From Thermoplasmata archaeon (GTDB lineage Archaea; Thermoplasmatota; Thermoplasmata; Lutacidiplasmatales; UBA184), in NCBI GenBank assembly GCA_035933635.1, contig DASYYY010000022.1, positions 130,417 through 194,416 of the forward strand: a stretch of 64,000 nucleotides of DNA, in the 5' to 3' direction. Of this stretch, positions 6,144 to 55,374 are shown piece after piece. Position 1 is the stretch's first letter, and every line of letters starts with the position of its first letter. Under the pieces are notes generated by a model. The model was given only the letters and a program-made list of their open reading frames with translations. It was not told where the DNA came from and ran no database searches. Made by a program: the position numbers and the translations under genes.

Positions 6144-6194
6144 TCGAGCGGGCGGGCTCGGGTAAGCCTATCACTTGGGTCTCCTCGGCCCCAC

Positions 6195-8381: not shown

Positions 8382-8406
8382 GCATGGTCGAACGCTTGCA
8401 TCTCTC

Positions 8407-24862: not shown

Positions 24863-25083
24863 GGGACCCGGCAGTCGTTGCACCGGCTGGAGTTACTTAA
24901 TACGCACTCATGCAGGGGTCACCGGCTGGAAAGTTCGGGGCGGATTCTCGGGCTCGCGTCACCAGGTCGGTGGGACCTCGGGATGTCGGGCCATCCGCCC
25001 CTGGCCCAACGGAACATTTCCCGACACGACTCGAAGACCGTGAGTCGAGTCCCCGAGGGTCGCACGTAGTCGAATCGGAGCAA

Positions 25084-25569: not shown

Positions 25570-25572
25570 CGG

Positions 25573-26451: not shown

Positions 26452-26477
26452 CGGCGATAAATGGGGGCTGATGCGCA

Positions 26478-26484
26478 TTTATAC
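26478..26484 (-). promoter_or_regulatory. TATA box (TTTATAC/GTATAAA) for the pilin-like operon
   Basis: Only AT-rich heptamer in the region, correctly spaced for a leaderless start at 26451. Confidence 0.45.
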
Positions 26485-34482: not shown

Positions 34483-37400
34483 GCGACACCCCCGCCTCGC
34501 CCTCGGGTCGCAACCCCGCCCGCGGGTGGGCCGGCGCGGGGCTCCATCCGCTCACCCGCCGAACGCTGGTCGTGGCGGTCCTCGTCGCGCTCGCGCTTCC
34601 TGCCGTCCTCGCGATCTCGTCGGTGGGATGGCCGCCGGCTCCGCACGCGGGCTCGATCGTCCTGGTCCGGGGACTCCCGCACGCCTCGGAAGCAACCGCC
34701 ACCGGGGGGGCGATCGACTGGGGGCAGGCCCGTACCCCGACCACGGCGGCCGGCACCGCCCCGGGGGCGAGCTCCGGGCCCGGCCGGTTCTTCGACACCG
34801 TCCCGGTCCCGCTCCCGGGAACCGGGATCCAATCCTGCTACCGAACGGTGCCCCAATCGGGGAGTTGCGATCCGGTCAACGACACGATGGGCCCGCAGTT
34901 GAACCTGACCAGCCGGGGCCGGATCGGGCTCGTGTACACCGCCTTCACCAACGCCTCCTCGTGCGGCAAGGTGCATCGGCGCTACACCGAGACGCTGATC
35001 GGATTCACGACCTCGCGCGATGGGGTGACCTGGGCCGCGCCGCAGTACCTGGGCGGGACCCGGTGCGACACCGTGAACGCGGCCGCGTTCCCCTCGGCGT
35101 GGCAGCCCACGCTCACGTCCCTCGGCAACGGCACCTTCGTCCTGGCCTACGTCGCCTACAACCTGTCGAGCGGGTTCGCTCCGGACCTCTACGCCACCCG
35201 CGACTGCTCGACCTCGAGCTCCTGCATCTACGAGAGCAACGTCCTGACCTCGGAACTGGTCGTCGAAGAGAGCTACGACAACGGGTCGCACTGGACGACC
35301 CCGACGGTGCTCAACGGCTCGGCGTTCCCGAACGCGGTCCCCTTGGAAGGATGGCTCCCCTGGCATCCGTCGATCACCGCCTGGGGCCGGACGATCTACC
35401 TGTCGTGGTCGAACATCACCAGCGAGCCGGACATCGAGCGCTCGGCCGGCCAGGTCGTCGCGGGCGGCTCCGGCCAGGTCCACCTCGTCGTCTCGGCGGA
35501 CGGGGGGGCGACCTGGGGGTCGCCGTGGGACCTGCCCGTGCGCGACGGACCGAGGTCGTACTTCGCCACGAATCCCGATGTGCTGGCCCTTCCAAGCGGT
35601 GAGATCGAGCTGGCCTATGTCACCAATCTGACCTATGGGCCCGCGACCTGCTGTGCCGCCCGGTACACCTACACGACCTTCCATGTCGACGTGGTCGTGG
35701 CGACGGTGATCGCCAACGGCTCCCGGTTCAACGTCCGCACGGTCGCGGCCTCGGTCCCGATCTACGGCGGACCGGCCTCGCCGCACCCGCACTGGTACTA
35801 CGAGCTCGACCCGGCCCCCCAACTGGCCTACGGGGCCGCCTCGAACGAGGTGTTCGCCACGTGGTCGGCGCTCGTGCCCGGGCTCGCCTGCACCGTCGCC
35901 TCCAGCGCGCCGTCCGCCTGCCAGTTCGACTACAACGAGAGCCAAGTATTCGTCGCCCACGGCCCCGTGCTCGGACGGTCGTGGGCGGTGGCCGAGGTCG
36001 GACCGATCGCCAACGTCGGCAACGACACCGAGCTCGCGAACTTCGACCAGGGGGTCTCCCAGCACTTCCTGCCCTCCCTCGCCGTCGGGAGCTCCGGCAC
36101 CGTGGTCCTCCAGGCGCTCGTGGTCAACGATTCGGTGTGCGGGACCTACTTCGCGCCCTACCCCGTGGCCTCCACGGCCTGCGGAGCGCCGGTCGAGGTG
36201 ACGACCTCCAGCCGGGACAACGGGTCGACCTGGTCGGCACCGGTCGATCTCGCCTGGGAGCCGACCCTCTTCGCGGGCGACCTTCCCGACGGGATGTCGA
36301 GCGCGACGCTCGCCTACGGCGACCGCGTCGTCCTGGCCTGGACCCACGGCTCGTGCCCGGTGTGGAACTCGACGACGGTCCCCTACACCGACTGCGAGTG
36401 GGGATCGCATCCGATGCGCGCCTCGGCGCAGGTGGAGGTCTCGACGCCGTACCTCGGCGCCGGGGTGACCGTCACATTCCATGCCTCCGGCGTCCCCGCG
36501 GGCAAGAGCTGGGCGGTCGACCTGCTCGGCAACTACCGCGTCGGTCCTGGCGCGTCGCTGACGATCGGCGGGGTGCCCGCGAACGCGTGGATGGGCTGGG
36601 GCCTGTCGATGCCGTCGTTCGGATACGGCGCGCGGTTCACCGCCGCCGGCTCGATCCCCTCCCCCGAACAGTTCCGGAGCAGCACGACCGTCGACGAGAA
36701 CTTCTCGGTGAGCTATCTGCTGAACCTCGTCTCCGACCCGAGCTATCCGCAGGCACCGCCCGGCGCCGGGTGCACGATGGCGATCACGTGGGACGATCCC
36801 GAATGCGCCCACCTCGACTACAACCTCACGCCCGGCGTGGAGTCGGTCTGGTTGCCCCCGGCCACGGTCGTGCCGCTCGATGTCACGCCGAACCCCACCT
36901 ACTGCACCGGCGCCGCCTGCATCTTCTACGAGGCCAACCTCTCGTTCCTCTCCTGGACCGGTAGCGGGGCGGGGAGCGCGAACACCTCCTCCAACCGGAG
37001 CGCGCTCGTCCTGCAGGGGCCGGTCAACGAGACGGCGAACTTCGAGGTCCTCGGCTGGTGCTACTTCTTCTACTACAACACACCGCAGAACACCTGCGTC
37101 GCCTCCAACGCGTCGATCGACTTCGCCGAGCACGGGCTGCCGGCGGGCACCCCGTGGGGGGTGTCGACGTGGGGTCCGGCCGAGGCGGCCGGTCCTCCCG
37201 GAGCGAACTTCACGAACGGTCCGGCCCTGGCCGTGGGCGGGAACGTCACCCTCGGGGAGACCTACTACGCCCCGTGGTCCGTCGACGTCGGTGGGGCACG
37301 CTTCGTCGGTTCGGGCGTTCCGGAATCCCCCGTCGCCTTGCCCGGTCAGGCCGCGGTGACGGTCAATTACACCAGGGCCACCGGACCGACGAACGATACC

Positions 37401-39116
37401 CTCATCCTCCAGGAATCCGGCCTCGGGGTGGGTACCGCCTGGTCGCCGCTGCTGGATGGGGTGGCGCTCGGCGTGCGCGGCCCGACGGGCGTGTTCACGA
37501 TCGGCGCCGGGTCCCACACCTTCGGGGGCGAGCCGGTGTACCGGACGAACGGTACCGGATTCGAGGCGACGGCCGTGCACGTCGAGCCGCTCGTTCTGCC
37601 CGACGGAGGCTGGGTGAACGGCAGCGCTCCACTGTCCGTGGAGTTGAACACCTCGGCGTACGCCCAGGTGCTCTACTCTCCGACGGTGCAGCTTTCGGTG
37701 GCGGTGGCCGGCCTCGGGAGCGTCTCCGAGCCGCCGAGCAGCTGGTGGCTGGCCGGGAGCCGGGTCGAACTTCTGGCCGATCCGATGCCGGGCTACCACT
37801 TCGTCGGGTGGACCGGCTCCGGAGCGGGCTCGGTCACTGGCGGAAACCCCGAGGCCAACGTCACGCTCAACGCCCCGATCGTGGAGCTGGCGGCGTTCGC
37901 GCGCAACGCCGGGCCGCTCTACACGGTCGTGGTCGAGCCGCAGTTCCTACCGGCCGATGAGCCGTTCTCGGTAGAGTTCAATGGGACGCTCCTGACCGGT
38001 TCGGGCAATCTCTCGATCCCGAACGTGGTCCCGGGGAACTATTCGTTCGCCATGCCGGTCGATTACTCGAATCGTTCCACCCTCGAGCGTTTCGTGCCCG
38101 GAGCCGCCTCGGGCCCGTCGGTCGGGGGCTCCGGCGACGAGCTGACGGTGCAGGGCAATGGGACCGTGCTCGTCCCGTTCACCTCGCAGTACCTGGTCAC
38201 GCTCGCGGCCTCGGGGCCGGGCTCGATCGTCCCCGCCCCCGGGGCCTACTGGGAGGACTCCGGAGCGACCGTGGCGCTCCGCTCGCATCCGGCTCCGGGG
38301 TACGCGCTCGAAGCCTGGAACGGCTCCGGTCCGGGAGCCTATTCGGGAACCGGGACCGCTCCCTCCGTGAGGGTCGACGGACCGATCTCGGAGACGGCGC
38401 TGTTCCTCCTCGCTCCGGCGAGCGTGCCCGAGACCTACACCCTGACGATCCTCGAGGCCGGTTTACCGCCCGGTGCGGATTGGGGATTCTCCGTCGGCGA
38501 TTCGGGTGTCGCGGGCACCACCGCGAACCTGACACTGGGCGGGCTCAACGGCTCGTCGACGGTAGCTGTCGCGCCGGTGGTGGTCGGGCTGGGCGATCGC
38601 TTCGCCCCCGCCCCGGGCGGGTCGGCGGTGCTCCCGTTGGAGATCAGCACCGATCGGGTCGTCCAGGTCACTTTCGCCGAGCAGTTCCTGGTCCACGTCG
38701 ACGGCGGCGTCGGCGGCTCGGTCGCGCCCGGGAGCGGCTGGTTCGCGGCGGACAGTACCGTGACGATCACGGCCCGGCCGGTCGGCCCGGGCTACACGTT
38801 CGGCGGATGGGCCGGTAACGCCTATTCCGGCACGAACCCCGCCGTGCCGATCCACCTCGTCGGTCCGGTCAACGAGTCCGCGACCTTCACCGTGGCGTTC
38901 GCACGGGCCGGGCCGGGAAGTGCGAACGCCGGCTGGGCCGTGGCACTCGCGGTCGTGGGACTGCTCGGGGCGGCGGGGCTTGGTGCGGCGTGGGTGCTCG
39001 CCCGGCGCCGACGGGAGCCACCGGCCCTCTACGTCGAGGAGTACATCCCCGTCGCGTCGTGGAGCGGTGAGGGGGCGGCCGAAACGCTCAACGCCCCGCA
39101 CGACCGTCCCCCCTGA
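34479..39116 (+). CDS. second giant membrane-anchored surface glycoprotein (paralogous architecture: BNR propeller plus InlB-B-like repeats plus C-terminal TM)
   Basis: 1545-aa real part of track ORF 33843..39116. GTG start overlaps the upstream stop (GTGA). Signal/anchor LVVAVLVALALPAVLAISSVG. Asp boxes SRDGVTW, SYDNGSHW, SADGGATW, SRDNGSTW. Repeats GYHFVGWTGSGAGSVTG, GYALEAWNGSGPGAYSG, GYTFGGWAGNAYSG. C-terminal TM AVALAVVGLLGAAGLGAAWVLA. Confidence 0.9.
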   Translation: MSDTPASPSGRNPARGWAGAGLHPLTRRTLVVAVLVALALPAVLAISSVGWPPAPHAGSIVLVRGLPHASEATATGGAIDWGQARTPTTAAGTAPGASSGPGRFFDTVPVPLPGTGIQSCYRTVPQSGSCDPVNDTMGPQLNLTSRGRIGLVYTAFTNASSCGKVHRRYTETLIGFTTSRDGVTWAAPQYLGGTRCDTVNAAAFPSAWQPTLTSLGNGTFVLAYVAYNLSSGFAPDLYATRDCSTSSSCIYESNVLTSELVVEESYDNGSHWTTPTVLNGSAFPNAVPLEGWLPWHPSITAWGRTIYLSWSNITSEPDIERSAGQVVAGGSGQVHLVVSADGGATWGSPWDLPVRDGPRSYFATNPDVLALPSGEIELAYVTNLTYGPATCCAARYTYTTFHVDVVVATVIANGSRFNVRTVAASVPIYGGPASPHPHWYYELDPAPQLAYGAASNEVFATWSALVPGLACTVASSAPSACQFDYNESQVFVAHGPVLGRSWAVAEVGPIANVGNDTELANFDQGVSQHFLPSLAVGSSGTVVLQALVVNDSVCGTYFAPYPVASTACGAPVEVTTSSRDNGSTWSAPVDLAWEPTLFAGDLPDGMSSATLAYGDRVVLAWTHGSCPVWNSTTVPYTDCEWGSHPMRASAQVEVSTPYLGAGVTVTFHASGVPAGKSWAVDLLGNYRVGPGASLTIGGVPANAWMGWGLSMPSFGYGARFTAAGSIPSPEQFRSSTTVDENFSVSYLLNLVSDPSYPQAPPGAGCTMAITWDDPECAHLDYNLTPGVESVWLPPATVVPLDVTPNPTYCTGAACIFYEANLSFLSWTGSGAGSANTSSNRSALVLQGPVNETANFEVLGWCYFFYYNTPQNTCVASNASIDFAEHGLPAGTPWGVSTWGPAEAAGPPGANFTNGPALAVGGNVTLGETYYAPWSVDVGGARFVGSGVPESPVALPGQAAVTVNYTRATGPTNDTLILQESGLGVGTAWSPLLDGVALGVRGPTGVFTIGAGSHTFGGEPVYRTNGTGFEATAVHVEPLVLPDGGWVNGSAPLSVELNTSAYAQVLYSPTVQLSVAVAGLGSVSEPPSSWWLAGSRVELLADPMPGYHFVGWTGSGAGSVTGGNPEANVTLNAPIVELAAFARNAGPLYTVVVEPQFLPADEPFSVEFNGTLLTGSGNLSIPNVVPGNYSFAMPVDYSNRSTLERFVPGAASGPSVGGSGDELTVQGNGTVLVPFTSQYLVTLAASGPGSIVPAPGAYWEDSGATVALRSHPAPGYALEAWNGSGPGAYSGTGTAPSVRVDGPISETALFLLAPASVPETYTLTILEAGLPPGADWGFSVGDSGVAGTTANLTLGGLNGSSTVAVAPVVVGLGDRFAPAPGGSAVLPLEISTDRVVQVTFAEQFLVHVDGGVGGSVAPGSGWFAADSTVTITARPVGPGYTFGGWAGNAYSGTNPAVPIHLVGPVNESATFTVAFARAGPGSANAGWAVALAVVGLLGAAGLGAAWVLARRRREPPALYVEEYIPVASWSGEGAAETLNAPHDRPP

Positions 39117-41438: not shown

Positions 41439-42368
41439 ATGCCGGCGGAAGCGCTCGTCGCCCGCGAGCTCACCAAGACCTACTCCATCCGGGGGGGTCC
41501 CCAGGTCCACGCCCTGCGGGGAGTCTCGCTCACCATCCACCCGGGCGAACGGTTCGCGCTCCTCGGTCGAAACGGCGCCGGGAAGACCACCTTCCTGCGC
41601 ATCGCTTCGACCCTCCTGGTTCCGACCTCCGGCACGGTGGAGGTGTTCGGGATCGACGCGATACGCCGCCCGGAGGAGGTTCGCCCCAACCTGGCCGTGG
41701 TGCCGCAGGAGGGCAAACCGTTCTTCCACTTGACCCCCCGCGAGCAGGTCTACGCCTATCTCAGCGCCCGCGGGTTCGACCGCGCGACCGCCCGGTCCCG
41801 GACCGAGGAGGCGCTCGGGCAGATGGGGCTCGGGGAGGTGGCCGACCGTCTCTCGACCACGCTCTCGGGCGGGCAACGCCAGCGGACGATGGTGGCGACG
41901 GTCATCGCCACGGAGGCGCCGCTCCTGTTCCTGGACGAGCCGACGATCGGGATGGACCCGTTCGCGCGCCGGGATGTCTGGGAGTCCTTCCGTCGCCTGA
42001 CCCGGAGGGGGTCGACGATCCTGCTCACCACCCACTACCTCGACGAAGCCGAGCACCTTTCCCAGCGGCTCGCCATCGTCGAGCGCGGCAAGGTGCTTCT
42101 CGAGGGGGACGCCGAGGGGCTCAAGCGGCAGGTCGGTGGGAGCCTCCGCGTCTCGATCACCGAGGGAGCGCGGGTGCGCGAGACGCTCGCGAGCTTCGGG
42201 GAGCTGATCGAGGACGGTGGGTCGGTCTCGGTGATCCTCGGTCCGGAGAAGGTCCCCGAGCTGCTGAACTTCGCGATGAAGGAGCATCTCAACGCGAGCG
42301 TCGGCCCCGTGACGCTCGAGGAAGCGTTCCTGCGGATCGTCGGGCACTCGATCAACGAGGAGTCGTAG
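41439..42368 (+). CDS. ABC-2 type exporter ATP-binding protein
   Basis: 309 aa. Walker A GRNGAGKTT, signature LSGGQRQR, Walker B LLFLDEPTIGMD, H-loop. Confidence 0.9.
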   Translation: MPAEALVARELTKTYSIRGGPQVHALRGVSLTIHPGERFALLGRNGAGKTTFLRIASTLLVPTSGTVEVFGIDAIRRPEEVRPNLAVVPQEGKPFFHLTPREQVYAYLSARGFDRATARSRTEEALGQMGLGEVADRLSTTLSGGQRQRTMVATVIATEAPLLFLDEPTIGMDPFARRDVWESFRRLTRRGSTILLTTHYLDEAEHLSQRLAIVERGKVLLEGDAEGLKRQVGGSLRVSITEGARVRETLASFGELIEDGGSVSVILGPEKVPELLNFAMKEHLNASVGPVTLEEAFLRIVGHSINEES

Positions 42369-42370
42369 CG

Positions 42371-43123
42371 ATGGCGCTCGCGCGCCCCCGATGGACAGGC
42401 ACCGGGGCGTTCACGCTGACGGAGTTCCGGGTCCAGCTGCACGAGGGGCTGGCCATCGTGACCTCGATGATCGTGCAGGTCGTGCTGCTGATCTTCGTCG
42501 ACATCCTGGACCGGCCGATCCTGCCCTACGCGCTGATCGGCGCGGTCGTCTACTCGCTGTTCATGCTGGGCCAGCGGGTCCAGAACGAGGCGGCGTACAT
42601 CCGGATCGACCACAAGCTCACCGAGCTCTACCACGCGAGCCCGCTCACCGCCGAGGGGTACTTCGTCGGGATGTCCGCCGGGGTGCTCCTCGCCTACCTC
42701 CCGCCGATCCTGGTGCTCGTCGTCGCGATGGAACTGATCGCCCCGCTCGGTCCGCTGGCCTCCGCCACACTCCTCGGGGCCGGGGCCGCCGTCTGGCTGT
42801 TCACCTCCTCGATGGGCTACGTCTTCAGCACCCTGTTCAAGGAGAACCGGGCCATCTGGCCGTACGCGAGCATCCTGACCAACCTGTTCGGGGTGCTCCC
42901 GCCGGTCTTCTACCCGATACGGTTCCTCCCCGGCTACTGGCACCCCATCGCGCTGGCGATCCCGACGAGCTCGGCCGCCGCCCTCGTCGAAGCGGCCCAG
43001 GGCGGTCTGGTCAGCCTCTCCGGCGGCGAGCTCCTGTTCGGTGCGATCGTCCTCGCGATCGAGGCGATCGCCGTGTTCGTCTTCGCCGTATACTGGGCCC
43101 GTAGGTCCGCCCGGGAGCGCTGA
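42371..43123 (+). CDS. ABC-2 family transporter permease
   Basis: 250-aa real part of track ORF 41426..43123 from MALARPRW. Six TM helices. ATG 3 nt after the ATPase stop. Confidence 0.8.
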   Translation: MALARPRWTGTGAFTLTEFRVQLHEGLAIVTSMIVQVVLLIFVDILDRPILPYALIGAVVYSLFMLGQRVQNEAAYIRIDHKLTELYHASPLTAEGYFVGMSAGVLLAYLPPILVLVVAMELIAPLGPLASATLLGAGAAVWLFTSSMGYVFSTLFKENRAIWPYASILTNLFGVLPPVFYPIRFLPGYWHPIALAIPTSSAAALVEAAQGGLVSLSGGELLFGAIVLAIEAIAVFVFAVYWARRSARER

Positions 43124-43126
43124 ACG

Positions 43127-43894
43127 ATGTCCGAGACCGTGGCGGCCCGAGGATCGACCTCCGGCGGCGCGGTGCTGCCGGCGTTCGGGCTGATCGGCTG
43201 GCGGTGGGTCAGTCGCAACCCGGCCGCCGCCATCGCCCCGATCCTGTTGCCGTTCATCTTCCTGTACTTCCTGCGGCTGATCTCGCCCCCGTCGTACTTC
43301 CCGCTCGAGGTCGTCGGGGCGATGCTGTTCACCACCCAGAACATCGGCAGCTGGGTGCTCGGCGACTCGGCCACCTGGAGGATCGAGATGCGGATGCAGG
43401 ACCTGTTCGTCGCCTCCCCGCTGAACAAGGTCCGCTACCTGTTCGGGATCGCGCTGTCGAACCTGATCCCGGCGGCACCGGCGTTGGCCGTACTGGCGGT
43501 GCTCTTGGCGATCACGGTTCCGGTCCCGGCGCTCGGCTGGCTCGCGCTCCTCGGCTGCATCCTGACCCTCTGGATACTGTTCAGTGCCATCGGGATCGCC
43601 GTGTCGAGCCGGGTGAAGAGCCAGCGGGAGATCTGGCCGGTCGGCAACCTGAGCTTCACCATCATCGGGATGCTGTCGCCGTTGTACTACCCGCTGACCG
43701 TGCTGCCGCCCTACTGGCAGGACGCGGCCCGGTTCCTTCCCACCACCTACGCCGCGCTCCTGGTGCAAGGATCCATGGGCCTGCCGGGGGCGGTCGCGTC
43801 GGACCTTCTCGTCGATGCCGGTCTGCTCGGGCTCTCGGCGCTGGTCGGTACGATCCTCGCGCTGCGGCTCTACCGGTGGCGCGAAGGCGACTGA
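43127..43894 (+). CDS. ABC-2 family transporter permease (second subunit)
   Basis: 255 aa, six TM helices. Starts 4 nt after the previous permease. Confidence 0.8.
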   Translation: MSETVAARGSTSGGAVLPAFGLIGWRWVSRNPAAAIAPILLPFIFLYFLRLISPPSYFPLEVVGAMLFTTQNIGSWVLGDSATWRIEMRMQDLFVASPLNKVRYLFGIALSNLIPAAPALAVLAVLLAITVPVPALGWLALLGCILTLWILFSAIGIAVSSRVKSQREIWPVGNLSFTIIGMLSPLYYPLTVLPPYWQDAARFLPTTYAALLVQGSMGLPGAVASDLLVDAGLLGLSALVGTILALRLYRWREGD

Positions 43895-44522: not shown

Positions 44523-45383
44523 ATGACCGAAGGATATGCCCACCCCGAGACGCTGGTGGAGAACGCCTGGCTCGCCGAGCATCTGAACGACCCCCACGTC
44601 CGGATCGCCGAGGTCGACTACGACCCGGTCGCCAACTACCAGCAGGGCCACCTGCCGGGGGCGGTGCTGTTCGACTGGCGGCAGGACATTAACGACGGGC
44701 TAAGGCGGGACATCCTGTCGGGCGAGCAGCTCACCCAGCTGTTCCGCCGCAGCGGCGTCGAGGCGAACACCACCCTCGTGCTCTACGGGGACTTCAACAA
44801 CTGGTTCGCCGCGTTCGCCTTCTGGGTGTTCAAGTACTACGGGTTCCAGGACGTCCGGCTGCTCAACGGCGGCCGCAAGAAGTGGGTCGCCGAGGACCGT
44901 CCTCTGACCAAGGACGCCCCCTCCCCCGCACCGACCCAGTTCACGGCCGGCCCTCCGAACGACGCGCTCCGCGCCTACTACGACGAGGTGCGCAAGGGGC
45001 TCGACCAGGTCCGCTCCGGCCAGCTCCGGCTCGTCGACGTCCGCGGCCCCAAGGAGTTCACCGGTGAGGTGACCGCGCCGCCGGAGTACCCGAACGAACA
45101 CGCCCAGCGTGGCGGTCACATCCCCGGAGCGGCGAACATCCCCTGGGGCCAGGCGGTCAACGACGATGGCACGTTCAGGACCCCGGCCGAGCTCAAGGCG
45201 CTCTACGGCGGCAAGGGGATCACCGGCCAGCAGCCGGTCATCACGTACTGCCGGATCGGCGAACGGTCCAGCCACACGTGGTTCGTCCTGAGCTATCTGC
45301 TCGGCTACCGCAACGTCCGCAACTACGACGGGTCCTGGACTGAGTGGGGCAACCAGATCCGAAGCCCGATCGAGAAGCCCTAA
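44523..45383 (+). CDS. thiosulfate/3-mercaptopyruvate sulfurtransferase (two-domain rhodanese)
   Basis: 286 aa. Two rhodanese domains, catalytic loop CRIGERSSH in the C-terminal domain. TATA-like CTATAAT about 35 nt upstream. Confidence 0.88.
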   Translation: MTEGYAHPETLVENAWLAEHLNDPHVRIAEVDYDPVANYQQGHLPGAVLFDWRQDINDGLRRDILSGEQLTQLFRRSGVEANTTLVLYGDFNNWFAAFAFWVFKYYGFQDVRLLNGGRKKWVAEDRPLTKDAPSPAPTQFTAGPPNDALRAYYDEVRKGLDQVRSGQLRLVDVRGPKEFTGEVTAPPEYPNEHAQRGGHIPGAANIPWGQAVNDDGTFRTPAELKALYGGKGITGQQPVITYCRIGERSSHTWFVLSYLLGYRNVRNYDGSWTEWGNQIRSPIEKP

Positions 45384-46132
45384 CGCCGCGACGCGGCCCC
45401 CGCCGCGTCGTTCGTGGCGGGGGCCTCCATCCGACCGGTCGCACCGCGCCGTCGCGGCACGGGGTTCGGTTCCTTGCGGACGAGGAACTCGTGGAGGTGA
45501 CCGTCGACCCGGTGGATGAGCAGCGTGTGACCGGTTCGGTCCGACCAGCGAACGAGCTCGATCGGGCTGGTCGGGTCGTCGGTGACGAGCAGGACGACCT
45601 CCCCGGAGGCCCGGCCCGCCAGCTCGTCGTCCAGGCGTGCGAGGGTCGCCGAGCACTCCGTACCGAGCTCAATGAGCTGGAGGTCGGGGAACGCCGCGTA
45701 GCACCGGATGTGGAGGGCGCGGATCCGCTCGCGAAGGCCCTCGACGATCTCCGGCGCCGACCGCAAGGCTCCCCCCGGTCGAACCGGAGTGGAAGGTCGA
45801 ACGCGGACGATCCAGCCACGGTCGTAGGGCGAGTCGTTGACCAACTTCGGTCGCGCCACGACGGTCGGATTCCGTTCCACTACGGTCGCCTCGATGGGGA
45901 GCCGGACCGGCCCGGTGAAGCGGACGCTCTCGACGGTGGCCACGCTCGTACCCGCGGCTTGACTTCCCTCGAGCTCGCGGAAGCTGAGGGACGTCAGGAC
46001 ACCGGCGAAGGCCACCTGGCTCGAGGTCAGGCCGAGAGTGCAGACCCCCGCGTCGTCAACGGCCGTGATCCACGTGCCCTGCTCGAGGTCGTAGAGCCGG
46101 TCCTCGGGGACCGGGCAGCCGTCGACCTCCAT
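45380..46132 (-). CDS. fusion protein: GcvH-like domain (lipoyl-Lys replaced by Arg) plus TusA-like sulfur-carrier domain
   Basis: 251-aa real part of ORF 45380..46285 from MEVDGCPVPEDRLYDLEQGTW. N-domain aligns to the glycine cleavage H-protein core (ATVESVRFTGPVRLPIEATVVERNPTVVARPKLVNDSPYDRGWIVRV versus [27 protein letters not shown]...EPYAGGWIFKI), with R at the lipoylation position. C-domain matches TusA (GTECSATL...GEVVLLVTDDPTSPIELVRWSDRTGHTLLIHRVDGHLHEFLVRK) with the Cys retained. ATGA overlap with the rhodanese gene end. Confidence 0.7.
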   Translation of the reverse strand: MEVDGCPVPEDRLYDLEQGTWITAVDDAGVCTLGLTSSQVAFAGVLTSLSFRELEGSQAAGTSVATVESVRFTGPVRLPIEATVVERNPTVVARPKLVNDSPYDRGWIVRVRPSTPVRPGGALRSAPEIVEGLRERIRALHIRCYAAFPDLQLIELGTECSATLARLDDELAGRASGEVVLLVTDDPTSPIELVRWSDRTGHTLLIHRVDGHLHEFLVRKEPNPVPRRRGATGRMEAPATNDAAGAASRR

Positions 46133-46442
46133 CGACGCCCCGAATCGACCGGTCCCGATGAGCGTGCCGGCCGCCCCGTGACTTCTTGGGCGGCCGAGGG
46201 TGTGCTCCCGCGTGGCGCATACGGCCGCCGGCCCCGCCCACCGCCCGAACGTATGCGTCTGCGGCCACTTCGCCACGACGCACATGGTCGTCGAGCCGGT
46301 GGCCGGCCCGTTCGTCGGGTCCTACGCCCTGGTACCTACCGGGGGATGTGCCCGATGCGGCGCGGCGTGCACCAAGTACGCGCCGAGGTAACGTTCGCTC
46401 CGATACCCGACCATTATGCCGAGTTCGGACAGATTCCGGACG

Positions 46443-48113
46443 ATGTGGTCGCGCGACGATCCCTCCCGGGACCACCGTGGAGGTTCGGTGGCGCTCGCCG
46501 GGATGGTCGTGGTGCTTCTCCTGTCGAGCGGGCCCGCGGCGACGGGCTCCGCTCCGGTCGCTCCGCCTCCTCCTCCGCATTCGGTGAGGGCCGAGGCGGT
46601 CCACAGTGCCGCCACCGGTTCGACCGGCGGGGCGGTCGCCGAGCTGCGGGTCGACGCGGCCGACCCGGCGATCGTCCCCTACTCGGGGGTCGAGTCGAAC
46701 CTGACGGCGTACTCGGCGCCGACGATGCCGGACAACTCCCAGCTGCAGATCGCCACGGCGGTCGTCCTCGGCAACTACGACGCGGTGTTCGGGATCTTCC
46801 TCAACAACACGATCGCCCCGGTGCCGTTCTTCGAGGTGTTCTCGAACTCCACCGACCAGGGCCTTCGGCTCGTGTACTGGCCGAGCTTCGCGCTCGACCC
46901 GTCGACGGGCTACCTGTTCGCCCTCGTTCGGACCGCAGGGACCGTCTGGGAGTTCACCCTCGACGGTCGGCCGTTGGGGGGCAACGCGACGACGGCCAGC
47001 TACGACTTCGGGCTCGCGGCGGGGACCTGGGCGCGCAGCGTCAGCCTGACCGAGATCGCGGCGTACGCGAGCACCCCCTTCGCCCCGCCCTCCGTGACCG
47101 CCACGCTCGCCTTCGCGGTCCTGCGGCCGAACGGCTGGTACCTTCCGCACAACGGCACCGCCAGCACCTCCGGAAGCATCGCCGGGCCGTGGGGGCTCGA
47201 GGGGATGACCCAGCACCCGACGCTCGCTCCCGGGGAGGTCGAGAGCGGGCCGACGATCGCCTCCCTCCCGAACGGCACGAACGTCTGGACCGGCGGGCCG
47301 GTACCGGTGCGCGTGACGCTCACGCTAGGGAGCGGGCTGCTCCCCGCGGCGGGATCGACGCCGCTCGCCATCACGGTGCTCAGCAGTTCGGGGCTGGCCA
47401 TCTCCATGGCGGCGGTCTACCTGACCGATTCGATGGGAGGGCTGTTCTTTCCCCCCGCGCTCGTCACCGGGCCCGAAGGCAACTCCTCGTCGACCTTCAT
47501 CGCCCCCAACGCCTCGGCCCGGGAGACTGACCAGATCCGGGCGAACTCCACGATCTTCGGATTCGCCGGCTCTGCGATCGCAGCGGTGGTCGTGACCGCT
47601 GCCGTGCAGGTCACCCTCGATGCACCCTCGTCGGTGCGGGTCGAGACCTCCGGGACCGTCACCGTGGACGTACGGGCGGTCGTGGCCAACGGCACGCCGC
47701 TCGCGGGGGTCCTCGTGACCTTCTCGGTCAGCGGGGCGGCGGGGATCGACCCCACCACGACCATCACCGACGGCTCGGGCGAGGCAACGACGGTGGTGCT
47801 CGCCCCCGGGGCGCCGGCCACGGTGACGCTGATCGCGACCGCGGTGAGCCCCGGTTACTGGGGGGCGACCCGGGTGACAGTGCAGGTGGTCGCCCCGGCC
47901 ACGGTCTGGTGGGGGAACGACATCCCGTATGTTGTGGGCGGCGCGTTGGCTATCCTGGTGCTCGTGGCGCTGGTGATGCTCTACCGGCGTGCGACCCGCA
48001 AGGAGCAGGAGCTTCCCCCGATGGGACGACTCCGGCTACCGAAGCCCGCCGCGCCGACGGAGCCGGGGGCGACCGAACCGGTCTCCGGACCGGGACCACC
48101 GGCTCACCCGTAA
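46443..48113 (+). CDS. type-I membrane-anchored surface glycoprotein (hypothetical), N-terminal signal/anchor and C-terminal TM
   Basis: About 557 aa from MWSRDD. N-terminal hydrophobic segment VALAGMVVVLLLSSGPAATG. Sequon-rich Thr/Ser/Ala-rich ectodomain. C-terminal TM IPYVVGGALAILVLVALVMLY plus Pro-rich tail. TATA-like CATTAT 27-32 nt upstream. Confidence 0.75.
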   Translation: MWSRDDPSRDHRGGSVALAGMVVVLLLSSGPAATGSAPVAPPPPPHSVRAEAVHSAATGSTGGAVAELRVDAADPAIVPYSGVESNLTAYSAPTMPDNSQLQIATAVVLGNYDAVFGIFLNNTIAPVPFFEVFSNSTDQGLRLVYWPSFALDPSTGYLFALVRTAGTVWEFTLDGRPLGGNATTASYDFGLAAGTWARSVSLTEIAAYASTPFAPPSVTATLAFAVLRPNGWYLPHNGTASTSGSIAGPWGLEGMTQHPTLAPGEVESGPTIASLPNGTNVWTGGPVPVRVTLTLGSGLLPAAGSTPLAITVLSSSGLAISMAAVYLTDSMGGLFFPPALVTGPEGNSSSTFIAPNASARETDQIRANSTIFGFAGSAIAAVVVTAAVQVTLDAPSSVRVETSGTVTVDVRAVVANGTPLAGVLVTFSVSGAAGIDPTTTITDGSGEATTVVLAPGAPATVTLIATAVSPGYWGATRVTVQVVAPATVWWGNDIPYVVGGALAILVLVALVMLYRRATRKEQELPPMGRLRLPKPAAPTEPGATEPVSGPGPPAHP

Positions 48114-48858: not shown

Positions 48859-50907
48859 ATGTCCCGTTGGATCTGGGCGGCATTGGCCGTGTGTGTTACG
48901 GCGCTCATCGCAGTCCCGACCGTCCCCGGGATTGCTCCCGAAGGTTCGACCGTGCTCGGCCCGCCGCACGCGGGCCGGCCGGTCGCGCTCGACCCCGCAG
49001 CGTACGAGCTCGAAGCGGCTCGCGGTTCCCTCGGCAGCCGGGGAGGTCCGGGGGCCGCGGCCCACTGGAGCGAGGTCAGCCCCTCCCTCAACTTCACCCC
49101 CGGTGACCCTCCTCCGCTCATGGCCTACGATGCGGCGGACGGGTACGTGGTCCTGCTAGGTGGTTTCTGTGGCCAGCTCTCCTTCCTCCCGACGTGGACG
49201 TTCGGACACGGGAAGTGGACGGAGCTCCGCACGACCGGCCCTCCGGGAGATTACGGCTCGGCCATGGCGTACGATCCTCCCGATCGGGAGGTCGTCCTGT
49301 TCGGTCAATCCACCGCGTTCGGCGGCGGGGCGCCCGTGAACATCACGTGGGTCTTCCACGGCGGAAATTGGACGTCGCTCTCCCCAGGGATCACCCACGC
49401 TCCCTCCTCCCGCCTGGACGCCGCACTCAGCTACGACGCGGCCGACGGCTACCTGCTCCTGTACGGTGGTGGCCTCGGTGACACGTGGAAATTTTCCGGG
49501 GGTGTGTGGACCAAGCTTCTTCCCTTCAGGCCAACGGGCCCGGGCATCCGTAACGACGCGTTGATGGCGTACAACGCCGCCTTGGGCGAGGTGGTGCTCA
49601 TCGGGGGGACGGCACTGCACCAGAACAACAGGTCCATCACGTGGGCCTACCGCTCGGGCCGATGGAGCCCGCTCAGCGCCACCCCGCCTCCGTCGGTCAA
49701 CGCTCTGTCCTCGCACGCCGACTGCCTGGCGTACGACGCTCGGTTGGGGGTCCTCGTGATGGTCGAACCCGGAGGGGGGATCAACGAGACTCCCGCCCGG
49801 TCGTGGAAGTTCAACGGTTCTTGGACGAAGATGCTCCTGCCCCGCGAGCCTCGCTCGACCCTGATGTCGGTCTGCACGCCGGACCCCTCGGTGGCGGACC
49901 TCCTATTGCTCGGCACACCGACCTGGGCGCTCGTCGGCCGGAACTGGAGTCCGATCGGCGGGAGCCTGTATCCGGTCTCCGCGGACGGCTCGGTCATGAC
50001 CTACGACGGGCGGGACGCGGAGGTCGTGTTCTGGGGAGCGTTCTTCTCCCCCACCTCACCGGGTCTGTACGGCCAGACGTGGACCTACGCCCATCACGCC
50101 TGGACGTGGCTTCGCAACCTCACCGTCGGTCCCCCCGGGGCCTCCGCCGGGCCATCGATGACCTACGATGCGGGGGACGGCTATGTGCTGTTCTTCGCCG
50201 GAGAGCCGAACCAGACCTGGAGTTTCGCGGCGGGGCATTGGACCCAGCGGACCGGTCCCGTCGCCCCCTCTCCCCGGGCGTTGGCCGCCGTCGCCTACGA
50301 TGCCAGGGACGGTTTCGTCGTGCTCTTCGGAGGTACTCCGTGCAACATCAGCATCGGGCAGCACGGGTGCCCGGAATTCAACGAAACTTGGACCTACGTC
50401 CACGGCCACTGGTCACGGCTCGTCCCCGGCCATGGGACGTCGCCGCCCGGACGAGAAACGGCCGTCCTCGTCTACGACTCCGCGGATCGCTATCTCCTGC
50501 TCTTCGGAGGGACCGATTGTCGGCCGCCGTCGTGCTTCGGACTCAATGACAGCTGGCAATTCCACGGGGGCAACTGGTCGATCTTGCGGCCCGCCAGCGC
50601 GCCTCGACCGTTCGTGGCCGCCGCGTCCACCTACGACGCCCACATCGCCGCCGTGGTGGTCTTCGGCGGGTGCACCGCAACAAACGGCTACTACGGCCCC
50701 GCGTACTCCCGCGCCGCGTGGACCTTCTCCGGCGGCCACTGGACCCCGGTCAACAGCTCCTCCACCTACCTCCCGATCGGTCGGTGCAGCGGCTTGATGG
50801 CCTACGTCCCCGGATCCGGCGGAGATCTCTTCACGCAGGGGGGCCCGTACCCGTACGGGTTCGGGGGAGAGGGGTTCAACGATCTCTGGTGGCTCCGATT
50901 GAGCTGA
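48859..50907 (+). CDS. secreted Kelch-repeat / galactose-oxidase-like beta-propeller protein
   Basis: 682 aa. Signal peptide MSRWIWAALAVCVTALIAVPTVPG. Repeated Kelch-like blades (AMAYD..VVLFGG, WTF.GG.WT). Sequons. No C-terminal anchor. Confidence 0.8.
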   Translation: MSRWIWAALAVCVTALIAVPTVPGIAPEGSTVLGPPHAGRPVALDPAAYELEAARGSLGSRGGPGAAAHWSEVSPSLNFTPGDPPPLMAYDAADGYVVLLGGFCGQLSFLPTWTFGHGKWTELRTTGPPGDYGSAMAYDPPDREVVLFGQSTAFGGGAPVNITWVFHGGNWTSLSPGITHAPSSRLDAALSYDAADGYLLLYGGGLGDTWKFSGGVWTKLLPFRPTGPGIRNDALMAYNAALGEVVLIGGTALHQNNRSITWAYRSGRWSPLSATPPPSVNALSSHADCLAYDARLGVLVMVEPGGGINETPARSWKFNGSWTKMLLPREPRSTLMSVCTPDPSVADLLLLGTPTWALVGRNWSPIGGSLYPVSADGSVMTYDGRDAEVVFWGAFFSPTSPGLYGQTWTYAHHAWTWLRNLTVGPPGASAGPSMTYDAGDGYVLFFAGEPNQTWSFAAGHWTQRTGPVAPSPRALAAVAYDARDGFVVLFGGTPCNISIGQHGCPEFNETWTYVHGHWSRLVPGHGTSPPGRETAVLVYDSADRYLLLFGGTDCRPPSCFGLNDSWQFHGGNWSILRPASAPRPFVAAASTYDAHIAAVVVFGGCTATNGYYGPAYSRAAWTFSGGHWTPVNSSSTYLPIGRCSGLMAYVPGSGGDLFTQGGPYPYGFGGEGFNDLWWLRLS

Positions 50908-53265: not shown

Positions 53266-55374
53266 ATGAACGAGAGCAAGTTCGGTCTGGGGTCGCGGCG
53301 CGGAAGTTGGCTGGTCGGCGGGACGGCGTTGATCGCCGCGACACTGTTCCTCCTGGGGAGCGCCGCGGCCGCGCACCCGGGTGCGCCGCCGCCCACGACC
53401 ACCTACTCGGTGTCGTTCGTCTCCCACGGCCTCGCCGCATCGTCGTCCTGGAGCGTCTACTTCAATGGCGTCACGTACTCGGGAACCAAGGCCACGATCA
53501 CGATCACCGGCGTCTCGGGGGGTAGCTACTACTTCTCGGCCGCCCAGGCCGTCGCGGGCTCGACGGGGATTCAATACTACGCCGGCTCGAACACCGGTTA
53601 CATCTCGGTCCCAGCGCAGCTCAGCCACTACATCGTCTACACCAAGGAGTACGCCGTGACGATCGGGGTCAACCCGACGGGCAGCGGCTACACCAACCCC
53701 GGCACGACCTACTTCGTCGCCGGAGAGACCTTCCCGCTCAGCGCGATCGCCTACACGGGCTACACGTTCTCCACGTGGGTCTCCTCGAGCAAGTCGCTGA
53801 TCCTCGGGTCAAAGACCGCCGCCTCGACCAACGTCACCATCGGTGCGCCGGGAACGCTCACGGCCAAGTTCAAGGCGGAGAAGTACCCGATCACCTACAC
53901 CGAGGTCGGTCTGCCGGCCGGTACCATTTGGTCGGTCACCTCCGGCGGGACGGCGTACGTCTCTTCGACGAGCACGATCAAGGCCGCGACCTCGGTCGTC
54001 GGCAACCTGTACTGGTCGGTCGCCCCGGTATCCTCCGGGACGACGGCGCAGTACGCCCCCTGGCCGGCCAGCGGCGGGATGTACGTGCCGAGCCAGACGA
54101 TGCAGACGATCTCCTTCGTCAAGCAGTACCAGGTCAGCGTCGTTGCCACCCCGAGCTCGACGGGCTCGACCTCGCCTTCGGGCACCGCGTTCTACACCGC
54201 GGGGACGAACCTGAGCGTCGTCGCCTACAGCACCTCGAGCTACCAGTTCTCCTCGTGGACGGCGGGCTCGACCAACCTGGGGATCGGGGGTAAGACCAAC
54301 TCCTCGACGAACGTCACGATCAAGGGACCGGGAACACTCACGGCGCACTTCTCCCCCGGCTCGTCGTGCACGACGTGCACGGTGACCATCTACGAGTCCG
54401 GCCTGCCCGCGAACGCGAACTGGGGCGTCGGCTACAACAACTCCTGGTACCCCTCGACGGTGACTCGGACGACCAACTCGCTCAAGTTCACCGGGTTGGG
54501 CAGCGGCTACTTCTACTGGTCGACCGCCAGCGCGGTGGCGAGCCCCTCGTCCACCTCCGGCGTGATCTACATCCCGTCCTCCACCGGGGGCTACATCTAC
54601 GTCCCGAGCCAGCTCGCCTACACCATCGTCTACACCCCCGAGTACTACGTCGGGATCATCACGAACCCCCAGTACGGCGCGGGCGGCGTCGGTCCGGCCT
54701 CGGGGTACTATCCGGCGGGCAGCGAGCTGCCCATCTGGAGCGGCGGCGGCAACGGCTGGGTCTTCTCCAAGTGGACCGCGAGCACCACCAAGCTCCCCTT
54801 TGCCAAGTCCAGTTCGCCGGCGACCACCGCCGTGGTCAACGGGCCGGGGACGATCGTGGCGAACTTCGTGCTCCCGACCACCACGGTCTCCTTCACGGAG
54901 TCGGGGCTGGCCAAGGGGACCCTCTGGTCGCTGACGTTCGACGGCGCGGTCTATGCCTCGAACACCTCGACGATCACGATCCACAGCGTCAGCTACGGCG
55001 GGCACTCGTGGTACCCGGACACTCCGTTCGATGCGACGACGACTACGCAGTGGGTCGCGCTGGCGTGGAACTACGGCGGCCTGAGCGGGACGCTCCAGGT
55101 GCCCTTCCAGAACGTCGAGAACATCGTCTTCGAGGAGGAGTTCAAGGTCAACTACTACACCGCCGGGACCAGCGGGGGCAGCATCTCGCCCTCCGGCCTG
55201 AACTGGTACCTCGCGGGCAGCATCGTCGCGCTGGACGCGATCAACGGGACGAGCGCGAACTTCACCAGCTGGAAGTCCTCGAGCTCCACCAACCTGGCGA
55301 TCGGATCGACGACGATGGCCGCCACCTACCTCGTCATCCAGGGGGCCGGCTCGGTCACCTGCACGTTCCACTAA
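53266..55374 (+). CDS. secreted InlB-B-repeat (Listeria/Bacteroides-type repeat) protein, Ser/Thr-rich
   Basis: 702 aa. Signal peptide LVGGTALIAATLFLLGSAAAA. At least 7 repeat units of the form GYTFSTW...TNVTI.GPGT.TA.F. Many N-x-S/T sequons. No TM anchor. Confidence 0.85.
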   Translation: MNESKFGLGSRRGSWLVGGTALIAATLFLLGSAAAAHPGAPPPTTTYSVSFVSHGLAASSSWSVYFNGVTYSGTKATITITGVSGGSYYFSAAQAVAGSTGIQYYAGSNTGYISVPAQLSHYIVYTKEYAVTIGVNPTGSGYTNPGTTYFVAGETFPLSAIAYTGYTFSTWVSSSKSLILGSKTAASTNVTIGAPGTLTAKFKAEKYPITYTEVGLPAGTIWSVTSGGTAYVSSTSTIKAATSVVGNLYWSVAPVSSGTTAQYAPWPASGGMYVPSQTMQTISFVKQYQVSVVATPSSTGSTSPSGTAFYTAGTNLSVVAYSTSSYQFSSWTAGSTNLGIGGKTNSSTNVTIKGPGTLTAHFSPGSSCTTCTVTIYESGLPANANWGVGYNNSWYPSTVTRTTNSLKFTGLGSGYFYWSTASAVASPSSTSGVIYIPSSTGGYIYVPSQLAYTIVYTPEYYVGIITNPQYGAGGVGPASGYYPAGSELPIWSGGGNGWVFSKWTASTTKLPFAKSSSPATTAVVNGPGTIVANFVLPTTTVSFTESGLAKGTLWSLTFDGAVYASNTSTITIHSVSYGGHSWYPDTPFDATTTTQWVALAWNYGGLSGTLQVPFQNVENIVFEEEFKVNYYTAGTSGGSISPSGLNWYLAGSIVALDAINGTSANFTSWKSSSSTNLAIGSTTMAATYLVIQGAGSVTCTFH

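Follow-up and report, generated by a model that had tools for sequence, protein, structure and literature searches.

The two genes described here lie in a 64-kb stretch of DNA with about 70% GC, hereafter the window, from a Thermoplasmata archaeon of the order Lutacidiplasmatales (assembly GCA_035933635.1, contig DASYYY010000022.1, positions 130,417 to 194,416). One encodes a two-domain rhodanese, and the other, convergent with it, encodes a protein in which an LbpA-like domain of the GcvH fold is fused to a TusA-like sulfur-carrier domain. We propose that the pair forms a conserved archaeal sulfur-relay module, in which the rhodanese would pass sulfur to the fusion protein without the participation of lipoate. 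From comparative sequence analysis we give this reading a probability of roughly 0.6, and we are less confident about the exact route of the sulfur within the fusion protein than about the relay with the rhodanese itself. The evidence consists of a rhodanese gene that stays beside the fusion gene when the flanking genes change, of three constant cysteines, and of a former lipoyl-lysine position that varies between nearly identical proteins.

The gene pair and its domains

The features of the pair are as follows (coordinates in the window, strand, description, basis).

45380-46132, minus strand: LbpA-like/TusA-like fusion gene, 250 aa plus stop (Pfam, family alignment, AlphaFold2, Foldseek)
45695-46132, minus strand: N-terminal GcvH-fold, LbpA-like domain with a C-terminal helix, residues 1-146 (Pfam GCV_H, Foldseek, identity to LbpA)
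46115-46117, minus strand: Cys6, the N-terminal LbpA-signature cysteine, in the motif G-C-x-x-P-E-D (family alignments)
45920-45922, minus strand: Arg71 (CGC) at the hairpin tip, the lipoyl-lysine position of H-proteins and LbpA (H-protein alignments)
45701-45703, minus strand: Cys144, the C-terminal LbpA-signature cysteine at the inter-domain junction, in I-R-C-[WYF]-P (family alignments)
45470-45694, minus strand: TusA-fold domain, residues 147-221 (Pfam TusA, Foldseek, BLASTP)
45653-45655, minus strand: Cys160, equivalent to Cys19 of TusA, in G-x-E-C-S-A instead of C-P-x-P (BLASTP, family alignments)
45380-45469, minus strand: C-terminal tail with a basic P-V-P-R-R-R segment, then about 20 variable residues (121-sequence alignment, AlphaFold2)
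46133-46285, minus strand: in-frame upstream extension of the open reading frame, probably untranslated (family consensus start)
44523-45383, plus strand: two-domain rhodanese of the thiosulfate-sulfurtransferase type, 286 aa (Pfam Rhodanese, 1UAR match, identity to paired rhodaneses)
45249-45269, plus strand: rhodanese active-site loop C243-R-I-G-E-R-S with the sole cysteine of the protein (comparison of paired rhodaneses)

The convergent overlap of the two genes noted in the original prediction spans 45380-45383, where the stop codon of the fusion gene (TAG, 45380-45382 on the reverse strand) meets that of the rhodanese gene (TAA, 45381-45383). The 301-aa open reading frame (ORF) of the fusion gene and the 298-aa protein called by NCBI are probably over-extended, since the family alignment supports a start at 46132 (MEVDGC). 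In an alignment of 121 close orthologues, which represents the Lutacidiplasmatales clade of the window protein, 119 have M or V at position 1; the family consensus start is M/V-E-V-x-G-C, and most homologues are 230-240 aa long. Upstream ORF extensions of this kind are common in high-GC DNA.

Both domains were recognised by profile and by fold. Pfam GCV_H matched residues 17-129 (E 1.4e-20, 73.8 bits) and Foldseek aligned the domain with GcvH 1onl at a template modelling (TM) score of 0.88, which bears out the earlier assignment of an N-terminal H-protein-type domain. Pfam TusA matched residues 157-220 with 31.8 bits against a cut-off of 28.6, and Foldseek placed this domain on E. coli TusA 3lvj_C with TM 0.87 and a root-mean-square deviation (rmsd) of 1.3; overall, the matches to 3lvj_C and 3lvk_B had TM 0.87-0.90 and rmsd 1.3-1.8. 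The structure prediction that had been called for, made with AlphaFold2 from 33 homologues, gave a confident two-domain model with a mean predicted local distance difference test score (pLDDT) of 93.3 and a predicted TM score (pTM) of 0.83, in which strands 63-69 and 73-77 form the hairpin around residue 71.

The about 20 terminal residues of the tail, which run up to the rhodanese stop codon, are not conserved, and the pLDDT drops there to 68 and then to 49. The preceding motif (E)-A-x-P-V-P-R-R-R is kept throughout Lutacidiplasmatales and is absent from distant fusions. AlphaFold2 modelled this basic segment with a pLDDT of about 91 and isolated beta-bridges, and the segment may be packed onto the rest of the protein.

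An LbpA-like domain without an obligatory lipoyl-lysine

The original prediction stated that the lipoyl-lysine of the H-like domain is replaced by arginine, and phmmer alignments to the H-proteins of pea, Thermus and E. coli agree: R71 lies under the lysine of the ESVK motif and the hairpin contains no lysine at all. R71 is present in all 121 close orthologues. In a broader alignment of 172 family genes, made up of the window gene and 171 fusion loci from a genome scan, a metagenome scan and contig look-ups, some of the loci being redundant copies from the same population, the position is occupied by R in 116, K in 54, N in one and T in one; one locus (L089) encoding a stand-alone LbpA was left out. 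V and S were also seen among 50%-identity representatives. Of two proteins that differ in only 2.3% of their residues (L131 and L142), one carries K and the other R, and further pairs with this difference are 94% and 90% identical. Because lysine and arginine interchange among near-identical proteins, the position cannot be an obligatory lipoylation site. The replacement is thus real in the window protein, although it is no one-off loss, as K and R alternate even at 98% identity. The high GC content of the window, 70%, was considered as the sole cause of the change from K to R and was rejected, as R occurs in lineages with 32-46% GC and K in a lineage with 61-70% GC. The bias towards a basic residue suggests that the site still matters, e.g., for binding of an anion or a partner. 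Judged from the alignments, the family as a whole appears lipoate-independent.

The description of the domain as GcvH-like was correct for the fold, and by sequence the domain is closer to LbpA, which binds lipoate in the sulfur-oxidising sHdr system. Identity to a stand-alone LbpA amounts to 37% over 143 aa, both cysteines included, with 86.7 bits, compared with 52-62 bits for genuine GcvH proteins. After the fusions themselves, the best stand-alone relatives are proteins of about 147 aa with an N-terminal G-C-x-x-P-E-D motif, an ESGKWVGP hairpin and a C-terminal cysteine. The top match sits in a cluster of the order EtfB-EtfA-EMO (Fer4+CCG)-hypothetical protein-LbpA-LbpA-DsrE2, a gene set described for type II sHdr loci (PMC11094781). 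The TusA domain of the fusion begins right after the position of the C-terminal LbpA cysteine (…IRC-FRC-end in LbpA, …IRC-YAAFPD…GTEC in the fusion).

By sequence, the fusion protein is not a GcvH. It shares the fold and the PF01597 family, lacks the lipoyl-lysine of ESVK and scores below both NCBIfam equivalog cut-offs (48 bits against 115.85 for TIGR00527 and 69.2 bits against 117 for PRK01202), and no glycine-cleavage genes accompany it. Their absence had been predicted and extends over the whole window, where a Pfam sweep of about 45 ORFs together with tblastn found no glycine-cleavage T, P or L gene and no sHdr, DsrE or lipoate ligase or synthase gene. Only one distant, rhodanese-less lineage has a GCV_T-like gene near the fusion. 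In this K-variant lineage (L152 and L169, 61-70% GC, 'Methanobacteriota archaeon'), in which the adjacent rhodanese is mostly missing, the fusion gene of L169 occupies 5995-6657 and a gene for a 594-aa GCV_T-like aminomethyltransferase lies 1.2 kb upstream, with cupredoxin, ADH and QueA-like genes nearby.

LbpA proteins are distinguished from GcvH by two conserved cysteines, near the N- and the C-terminus (Cao et al. 2018, PMC6067878). The fusion family carries both, and Cys6, Cys144 and the TusA-domain Cys160 are all present in 172 of 172 aligned genes; in the close orthologues Cys144 and Cys160 are invariant and Cys6 occurs in 120 of 121. Cys144 matches the …IRCFRC C-terminus of stand-alone LbpA. 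The lipoyl-lysine, strictly conserved in LbpA, is not conserved in the fusions. The domain is therefore LbpA-like in sequence, yet it lacks the defining lysine and the sHdr context of LbpA. One divergent member (P0170) lacks Cys6 and Cys144 together, and stand-alone LbpA-like proteins tend to have either both cysteines or neither (odds ratio 12, p = 1e-4), which suggests that the two residues work as a pair. Since the LbpA cysteines are conserved above the lysine site, the H-like domain is unlikely to be a passive scaffold. The suggestion that it serves for docking only was consequently abandoned: from the pattern of conservation, the domain is probably more than that.

The affinity to LbpA could also mean that the fusion assists a conventional sHdr/LbpA pathway whose genes lie in another part of the genome, with lipoylated K members and with R members as regulatory or inactive paralogues. 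The closest stand-alone relatives come from an sHdr-type cluster, 54 of the 172 members keep the lysine, and one Thermoproteota lineage has a gene for an LplA-like ligase at a distance of 5.7 kb from the pair. We nevertheless consider this explanation very unlikely. Alternation of K and R at 90-98% identity is not expected if lipoylation is required, and the uniform R in the close homologues stands amid strong overall conservation. Neither the window nor the other annotated contexts contained an sHdr, Lpl or LipS gene, and an shdr cluster with a dedicated lipoate ligase or synthase next to the fusion was likewise missing, in the window as in about 12 annotated contexts of homologues, which were read from contig fragments. 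The original prediction had recommended a search for sHdr and lipoate-ligase neighbours; the single LplA-like gene of the hot-spring Thermoproteota was the only one found in these contexts. Moreover, Thermoplasmatota with type II sHdr have DsrE3B as their sole sulfur transferase (PMC11094781).

The TusA-like domain

BLASTP aligned the C-terminal half with E. coli TusA without gaps over 72 aa (2e-09), with Cys160 (ECSAT) opposite Cys19 (RCPEP) and with the DDP motifs also matched. The domain thus has the fold and the Pfam gathering score of the TusA family (PF01206) and, at the start of helix 1, the cysteine of the persulfide position, invariant across the family as Cys160. The C-P-x-P motif is replaced by C-S-A-T in the window protein, CPGP being present in a few distant members, and the NCBIfam equivalog PRK00299 gave 16.5 bits against a cut-off of 78. 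By fold and cysteine, this half is a TusA-family domain with the retained cysteine in CSAT, as had been predicted, although it has no CPxP and does not reach the equivalog score. Sulfur exchange is known between TusA and both rhodaneses and DsrE proteins, and in purifications TusA is accompanied by LbpA, DsrE and sHdr proteins (PMC11094781).

The rhodanese and its pairing with the fusion

The neighbouring 286-aa protein matched Pfam Rhodanese in two stretches (E 1.2e-33) and has tandem rhodanese domains with the catalytic cysteine in a loop of the CRxGx[R/T] type. This residue, Cys243 in YCRIGERS, is the only cysteine of the protein, and the YCRIGER[SA] loop with a single cysteine is common to five of five paired rhodaneses compared. 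The closest solved structure is the T. thermophilus rhodanese 1UAR (full length, E 1.3e-106), and the mycobacterial thiosulfate sulfurtransferases CysA/SseA are also among the closest; the NCBIfam profile for 3-MST, PRK11493, gave 136 bits, below its cut-off of 250. By sequence it is an ordinary rhodanese of the CysA/1UAR type with predicted thiosulfate:acceptor sulfurtransferase activity.

A rhodanese gene lies within 700 nt of the fusion gene in 150 of 160 informative loci, and the two are convergent in 10 of 13 fusion clusters formed at 55% identity. The paired rhodaneses are 57-70% identical to one another, the fusions about 30-40%. The Lutacidiplasmatales share the whole neighbourhood (AHSA1, fusion, rhodanese, SUI1, ABC-2 transporter), which is equally conserved throughout, so this clade alone proves nothing about the pairing. 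Other lineages do. In hot-spring Thermoproteota the order is nuoI, fusion → ← rhodanese, nuoJ; elsewhere the pair lies between TrmB and DUF7839/siroheme genes (in L090 the DUF7839 gene is directly beside the rhodanese), is flanked by HTH and AICARFT genes, or, in a soil archaeon, by aEF2 and TFIIB. In Nitrososphaeraceae the two genes are convergent, and in Bathyarchaeia, Ca. Pelearchaeum and Ca. Caldarchaeum the rhodanese is co-directional and immediately upstream of the fusion. As the adjacency survives changes of flanks and of orientation, it is more than local synteny, and the link between fusion and rhodanese is real. The original prediction of an unusual sulfur-trafficking pair is thereby substantiated by an orthologous rhodanese with a CRIGER[SA] loop.

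The same comparison effectively refutes the notion that there is no functional pairing, i.e., that the arrangement reflects inherited synteny, a decaying H-like remnant, or an assembly or frameshift artefact. The uniform Lutacidiplasmatales neighbourhood with AHSA1, SUI1 and the ABC transporter would fit such a notion, as would a few database entries that are split into separate GcvH-like and TusA-like pieces. The rhodanese, however, outlasts all other neighbours. A sequencing error joining two genes, one of the concerns raised at the outset, was rejected because an uninterrupted ORF of this kind is present in at least 182 genomes that each represent a species. Dozens of residues are invariant across both domains in the family alignment, and the pTM of the two-domain model likewise speaks against decay.

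Several loci show variations of the arrangement. Among the Lutacidiplasmatales, only L053 (10001-20475) has the fusion and the rhodanese apart, with about 8.9 kb inserted. In the soil archaeon with aEF2 beside the pair (L099, 1978-5787, minus strand), the aEF2 gene carries an intein with a LAGLIDADG endonuclease domain. The L175 locus (3608-6648) has a rhodanese-less R-variant fusion of the ECPETL type, divergent from DsrE2, TusA, Pyr_redox_2 and ArsR-type HTH genes; the Pyr_redox_2 gene is SQR-like or persulfide-reductase-like, and a topoisomerase IB of the eukaryotic type, encoded on this contig, suggests that the host is a thaumarchaeon.

In Bathyarchaeia, the pair belongs to an operon of the order rhodanese-fusion-DsrE-TusA-cysteine desulfurase (Aminotran_5), with a JAB/MPN protease and a thioredoxin upstream. 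The rhodanese pairing together with the DsrE, TusA, cysteine desulfurase and SQR-like neighbours makes a sulfur-trafficking role well founded, and the persulfide carrier or adaptor that had been envisaged for the fusion stands in this respect, with the difference that its H-like domain, which retains Cys6 and Cys144, would be more than a docking scaffold.

The Bathyarchaeia operon also brings up another use of the sulfur. The pair could be a biosynthetic donor that provides persulfide for the thiocarboxylation of MoaD, SAMP or ThiS, for tRNA thiolation or for Fe-S assembly, and not for energy metabolism or detoxification. Its sulfur would come from a cysteine desulfurase or from thiosulfate, and the difference from the relay that we propose is confined to source and destination. 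Desulfurase, DsrE and TusA genes in one operon with the pair would suit this role, as would the JAB/MPN protease and thioredoxin genes; Tum1 is likewise a two-domain rhodanese. The family occurs in Nitrososphaeraceae and Bathyarchaeia, groups that are not known to oxidise sulfur. The window contains a MoaA gene, though 36 kb away, and the roles of TusA include molybdenum cofactor biosynthesis and tRNA thiolation (PMC11094781). On the other hand, the distribution is patchy, restricted to certain archaeal lineages among the matches listed, which is odd for a housekeeping function; no MoeB/UbaA, MoaD, ThiI or Nbp35/Suf gene adjoins the fusion in about 12 contexts; and the neighbouring Etf/FixC-like and SQR-like genes speak for a redox or dissimilatory treatment of sulfur. 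A biosynthetic role of the pair therefore seems rather doubtful to us.

Two lineages place the pair beside redox genes. In the Ca. Caldarchaeum locus L174 (1093-6663), five genes run in one direction with 2-62 nt between them: an etfB-like gene, etfA, a gene for a FixC/ETF-QO-like flavoprotein of 566 aa, the rhodanese gene and that of a K-variant fusion. An electron-transfer link is possible, reminiscent of the Etf/EMO genes in type II sHdr clusters. In hot-spring Thermoproteota with 32-34% GC (L084-L086, L113 and L117), the pair lies inside a complex I operon of the type nuoA-B-C-D-H-I, fusion (8001-8657 in L084), opposite-strand rhodanese, nuoJ-K-N, in which the fusion start overlaps the nuoI end by 4 nt; the gene for the LplA-like ligase is found 5.7 kb downstream. 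We rejected a link to complex I, as this gene order is restricted to the one lineage.

With these neighbours, and with three cysteines in every aligned family gene, the fusion could instead be a thiol-disulfide redox protein, a Zn- or Fe-S-binding protein, or an electron shuttle, e.g., to Etf or quinone. A conserved histidine, His214, is present in about 22 of 27 divergent members, and the etfB-etfA and FixC-like genes preceding the Ca. Caldarchaeum pair and the overlap with nuoI would both be in keeping with such a function. We hold it to be unlikely, because His214 is not invariant (E, Q and Y also occur), the cysteines are not spaced as in CxxC or another cluster-binding motif, Cys160 is exactly at the TusA persulfide position, and the nuo context is found in one lineage only, while the dominant partner is a sulfurtransferase and not a redox enzyme.

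Distribution of the family

The original prediction regarded the fusion as unusual, which did not hold for its occurrence. In a GTDB scan with one genome per species, at least 182 species carry the fusion gene; among 80 of these loci, the record title is Thermoplasmata archaeon in 79 and 'bacterium' in one. The search for the same fusion in related genomes, as had been recommended, was thus productive and extended to distant archaeal lineages. A word-indexed search gave 626 relatives, the best 120 of which are 55-100% identical and nearly all have both Pfam domains. The closest relatives come from metagenome-assembled genomes of acid soil and peat, including UBA184 and AcS/SubAcS genomes. When 1.84 billion cluster representatives were searched exhaustively with a profile, distant full-length fusions of 215-245 aa were found, by source name from Thermoproteota, Bathyarchaeia, Nitrososphaeraceae, Aigarchaeota (Ca. 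Pelearchaeum and Ca. Caldarchaeum) and 'Methanobacteriota archaeon'; the query of the metagenome scan was an 11-sequence alignment of divergent fusions. Two longer proteins have repeated matches: P0189 (1391 aa) has three matched stretches, the best over profile positions 3-120 in the H-like part, and P0260 (742 aa) has six, the best over 157-213 in the TusA-like part. Judged by these matches, they may be multi-domain arrays of these sulfur-carrier folds.

Domain labels already exist in databases, where the proteins are automatically annotated as 'sulfurtransferase TusA family protein' or 'glycine cleavage system H lipoate-binding protein/TusA-related sulfurtransferase'. In full-text searches of the literature we found no description of the fusion, the lysine loss or the rhodanese pairing. 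This large, domain-annotated archaeal family has therefore apparently never been studied, and while the putative sulfur-transferase relay is built from known folds, the fusion, the lysine loss and the pairing are apparently undescribed.

Proposed sulfur relay

In the relay that we propose, the rhodanese would load sulfane sulfur onto Cys243 from thiosulfate, with release of sulfite, or from another donor, a step established for this class of enzyme. The persulfide would then move from the rhodanese to Cys160 of the TusA-fold domain and, within the protein, could be handed on to the Cys144/Cys6 pair of the LbpA-like domain, which would stand in for the lipoamide dithiol. This pair may hold the sulfur for delivery to an acceptor or release it reductively with formation of a disulfide. 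Residue 71 of the hairpin would attach no cofactor and would merely be kept basic (K or R). Dihydrolipoate accepts sulfur from rhodanese in vitro (PMC6067878). The fusion could thus be a lipoate-independent, all-cysteine relative of the sHdr LbpA plus TusA couple in mostly aerobic archaea; no sHdr genes were found in any fusion locus examined.

The Lutacidiplasmatales are an order of aerobic heterotrophs with about 69% GC and are predicted to run TST plus SUOX on thiosulfate (PMC9287336). A sulfite by-product of the rhodanese would, speculatively, suit the predicted sulfite oxidase. More specifically, and only tentatively, we suggest that aerobic archaea, soil ammonia oxidisers and Lutacidiplasmatales among them, use the pair as a self-contained module that processes thiosulfate or sulfane sulfur without lipoate. 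In this module the Cys6/Cys144 dithiol would replace lipoamide, and the fused TusA domain would serve a classical rhodanese as its long-sought physiological acceptor.

Some observations weigh against the relay. About 10 of the 160 informative loci, as well as the lineages L175 and L176, have no neighbouring rhodanese. In the window and in most lineages the genes are convergent and hence not co-transcribed, so that adjacency is their only link. The TusA profile score is barely over its threshold and CPxP has become CSAT. Lastly, K-bearing members could still be lipoylated.

Surroundings of the pair in the window

Window-wide, no GcvH/LbpA paralogue and no cysteine desulfurase, LplA, Nuo or EMO gene was found. 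Genes for an ABC ATPase and for ABC-2 membrane proteins (41439-43894) lie two genes from the pair in Lutacidiplasmatales, and in L176 (6717-8391) a 42%-identical ABC ATPase and an ABC-2 permease directly follow a distant, rhodanese-less fusion. A link of the pair to the ABC-2 transporter was not established, as 42% identity to the L176 ATPase is too unspecific. A DUF7839-containing protein is encoded at 18930-19898 on the plus strand, about 25 kb from the pair; the presence of DUF7839 near the pair in both the window and L090 may be a coincidence.

The MoaA gene (Radical_SAM plus Mob_synth_C, molybdenum cofactor biosynthesis) is at 7945-9429 on the plus strand and is followed by GATase_5 and NTPase_1 genes; the Arg/Pro-rich N-terminal extension of about 160 aa in its listed ORF is probably untranslated. 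Very large secreted or surface proteins are dense at 33843-39116, 46416-48113, 48859-50907, 53266-55374 and 61767-63998. They are rich in Ser, Thr and Asn-x-Ser/Thr, one has 1757 aa, and their domains include Big_1, Kelch-like, InlB B-repeat and A2M bait-region. Several others, at 56661-57698, 57915-58967 and 24122-26478, had no Pfam match.

Significance of the pair

Two questions of the field are addressed by this family, namely what the physiological acceptor of classical two-domain rhodaneses is and what role the two conserved cysteines of LbpA play. The family is a natural experiment on both, as the lipoyl-lysine is dispensable and the cysteines are constant. It isolates the LbpA cysteines from lipoate, and it offers a candidate acceptor, and thus a candidate physiological partner for a classical rhodanese, in which the LbpA-like and TusA-like parts are physically fused and which is genetically tied to a single orthologous rhodanese in several archaeal lineages. 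If the more specific and tentative reading, with a protein dithiol in place of lipoamide, is true, the fusions would represent a new class of cofactor-less H-protein derivatives and would explain the enigmatic cysteines of LbpA. A module of this kind in abundant soil archaea (Lutacidiplasmatales and Nitrososphaeraceae) may affect the use or detoxification of thiosulfate and sulfane sulfur. The label 'glycine cleavage system H protein', which such proteins routinely receive in error, would be put right as well.

Comparison with known systems

With GcvH the fusion has in common the fold, the E-S-V-x hairpin context and the GCV_H match, and it differs in the missing lipoyl-lysine, the scores below both NCBIfam cut-offs, the absence of GcvT, GcvP and GcvL from the window and the additional cysteines. 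LbpA is nearer, as the best sequence match with the same fold, the same N-terminal G-C-x-x-P-E-D and C-terminal I-R-C cysteines, and a setting alongside TusA, DsrE and rhodanese sulfur transferases. Unlike LbpA, the fusion has arginine at the lysine site (K, R, N, T, V or S in the family), is covalently joined to TusA, and occurs without shdr, sLpl(AB) or LipS1/S2 genes in any locus seen.

The C-terminal domain resembles TusA (E. coli TusA/YhhP and the TusA of sulfur oxidisers) in its fold, in the position of the persulfide Cys19 and in the DDP motif, whereas it has C-S-A-T, is part of a larger protein instead of a free protein of 80 aa, and scores far below the equivalog cut-off. A TusA-fold cysteine that handles cytoplasmic thiosulfate or sulfane sulfur is also found in the thiosulfate transfer by DsrE3A-TusA of Metallosphaera cuprina and in the TusA-like YeeD/TsuB, which belongs to the YeeE system for thiosulfate uptake, and YeeD (8k1r_B) was among the Foldseek matches of the fusion protein; these systems have other partners (DsrE3A and the YeeE membrane protein) and no H-protein-like domain. 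In the Nfs1-Tum1-Uba4 pathway of eukaryotes and the IscS-TusA-TusBCDE pathway of E. coli, which would be the analogues of a biosynthetic donor, a two-domain rhodanese or TusA likewise acts as a persulfide intermediate after a cysteine desulfurase, but no E1-like or tRNA-thiolation enzyme adjoins the fusion loci. The rhodanese itself agrees with the CysA/SseA/1UAR clade in its full-length match, its loop of the CRxGxR type (CRIGERS) and its single catalytic cysteine. In mycobacteria the partner of cysA is a gene for SseC (DUF1416), a small protein of unrelated sequence, and the archaeal rhodanese differs from this clade in that it comes with a dedicated LbpA-TusA partner gene.

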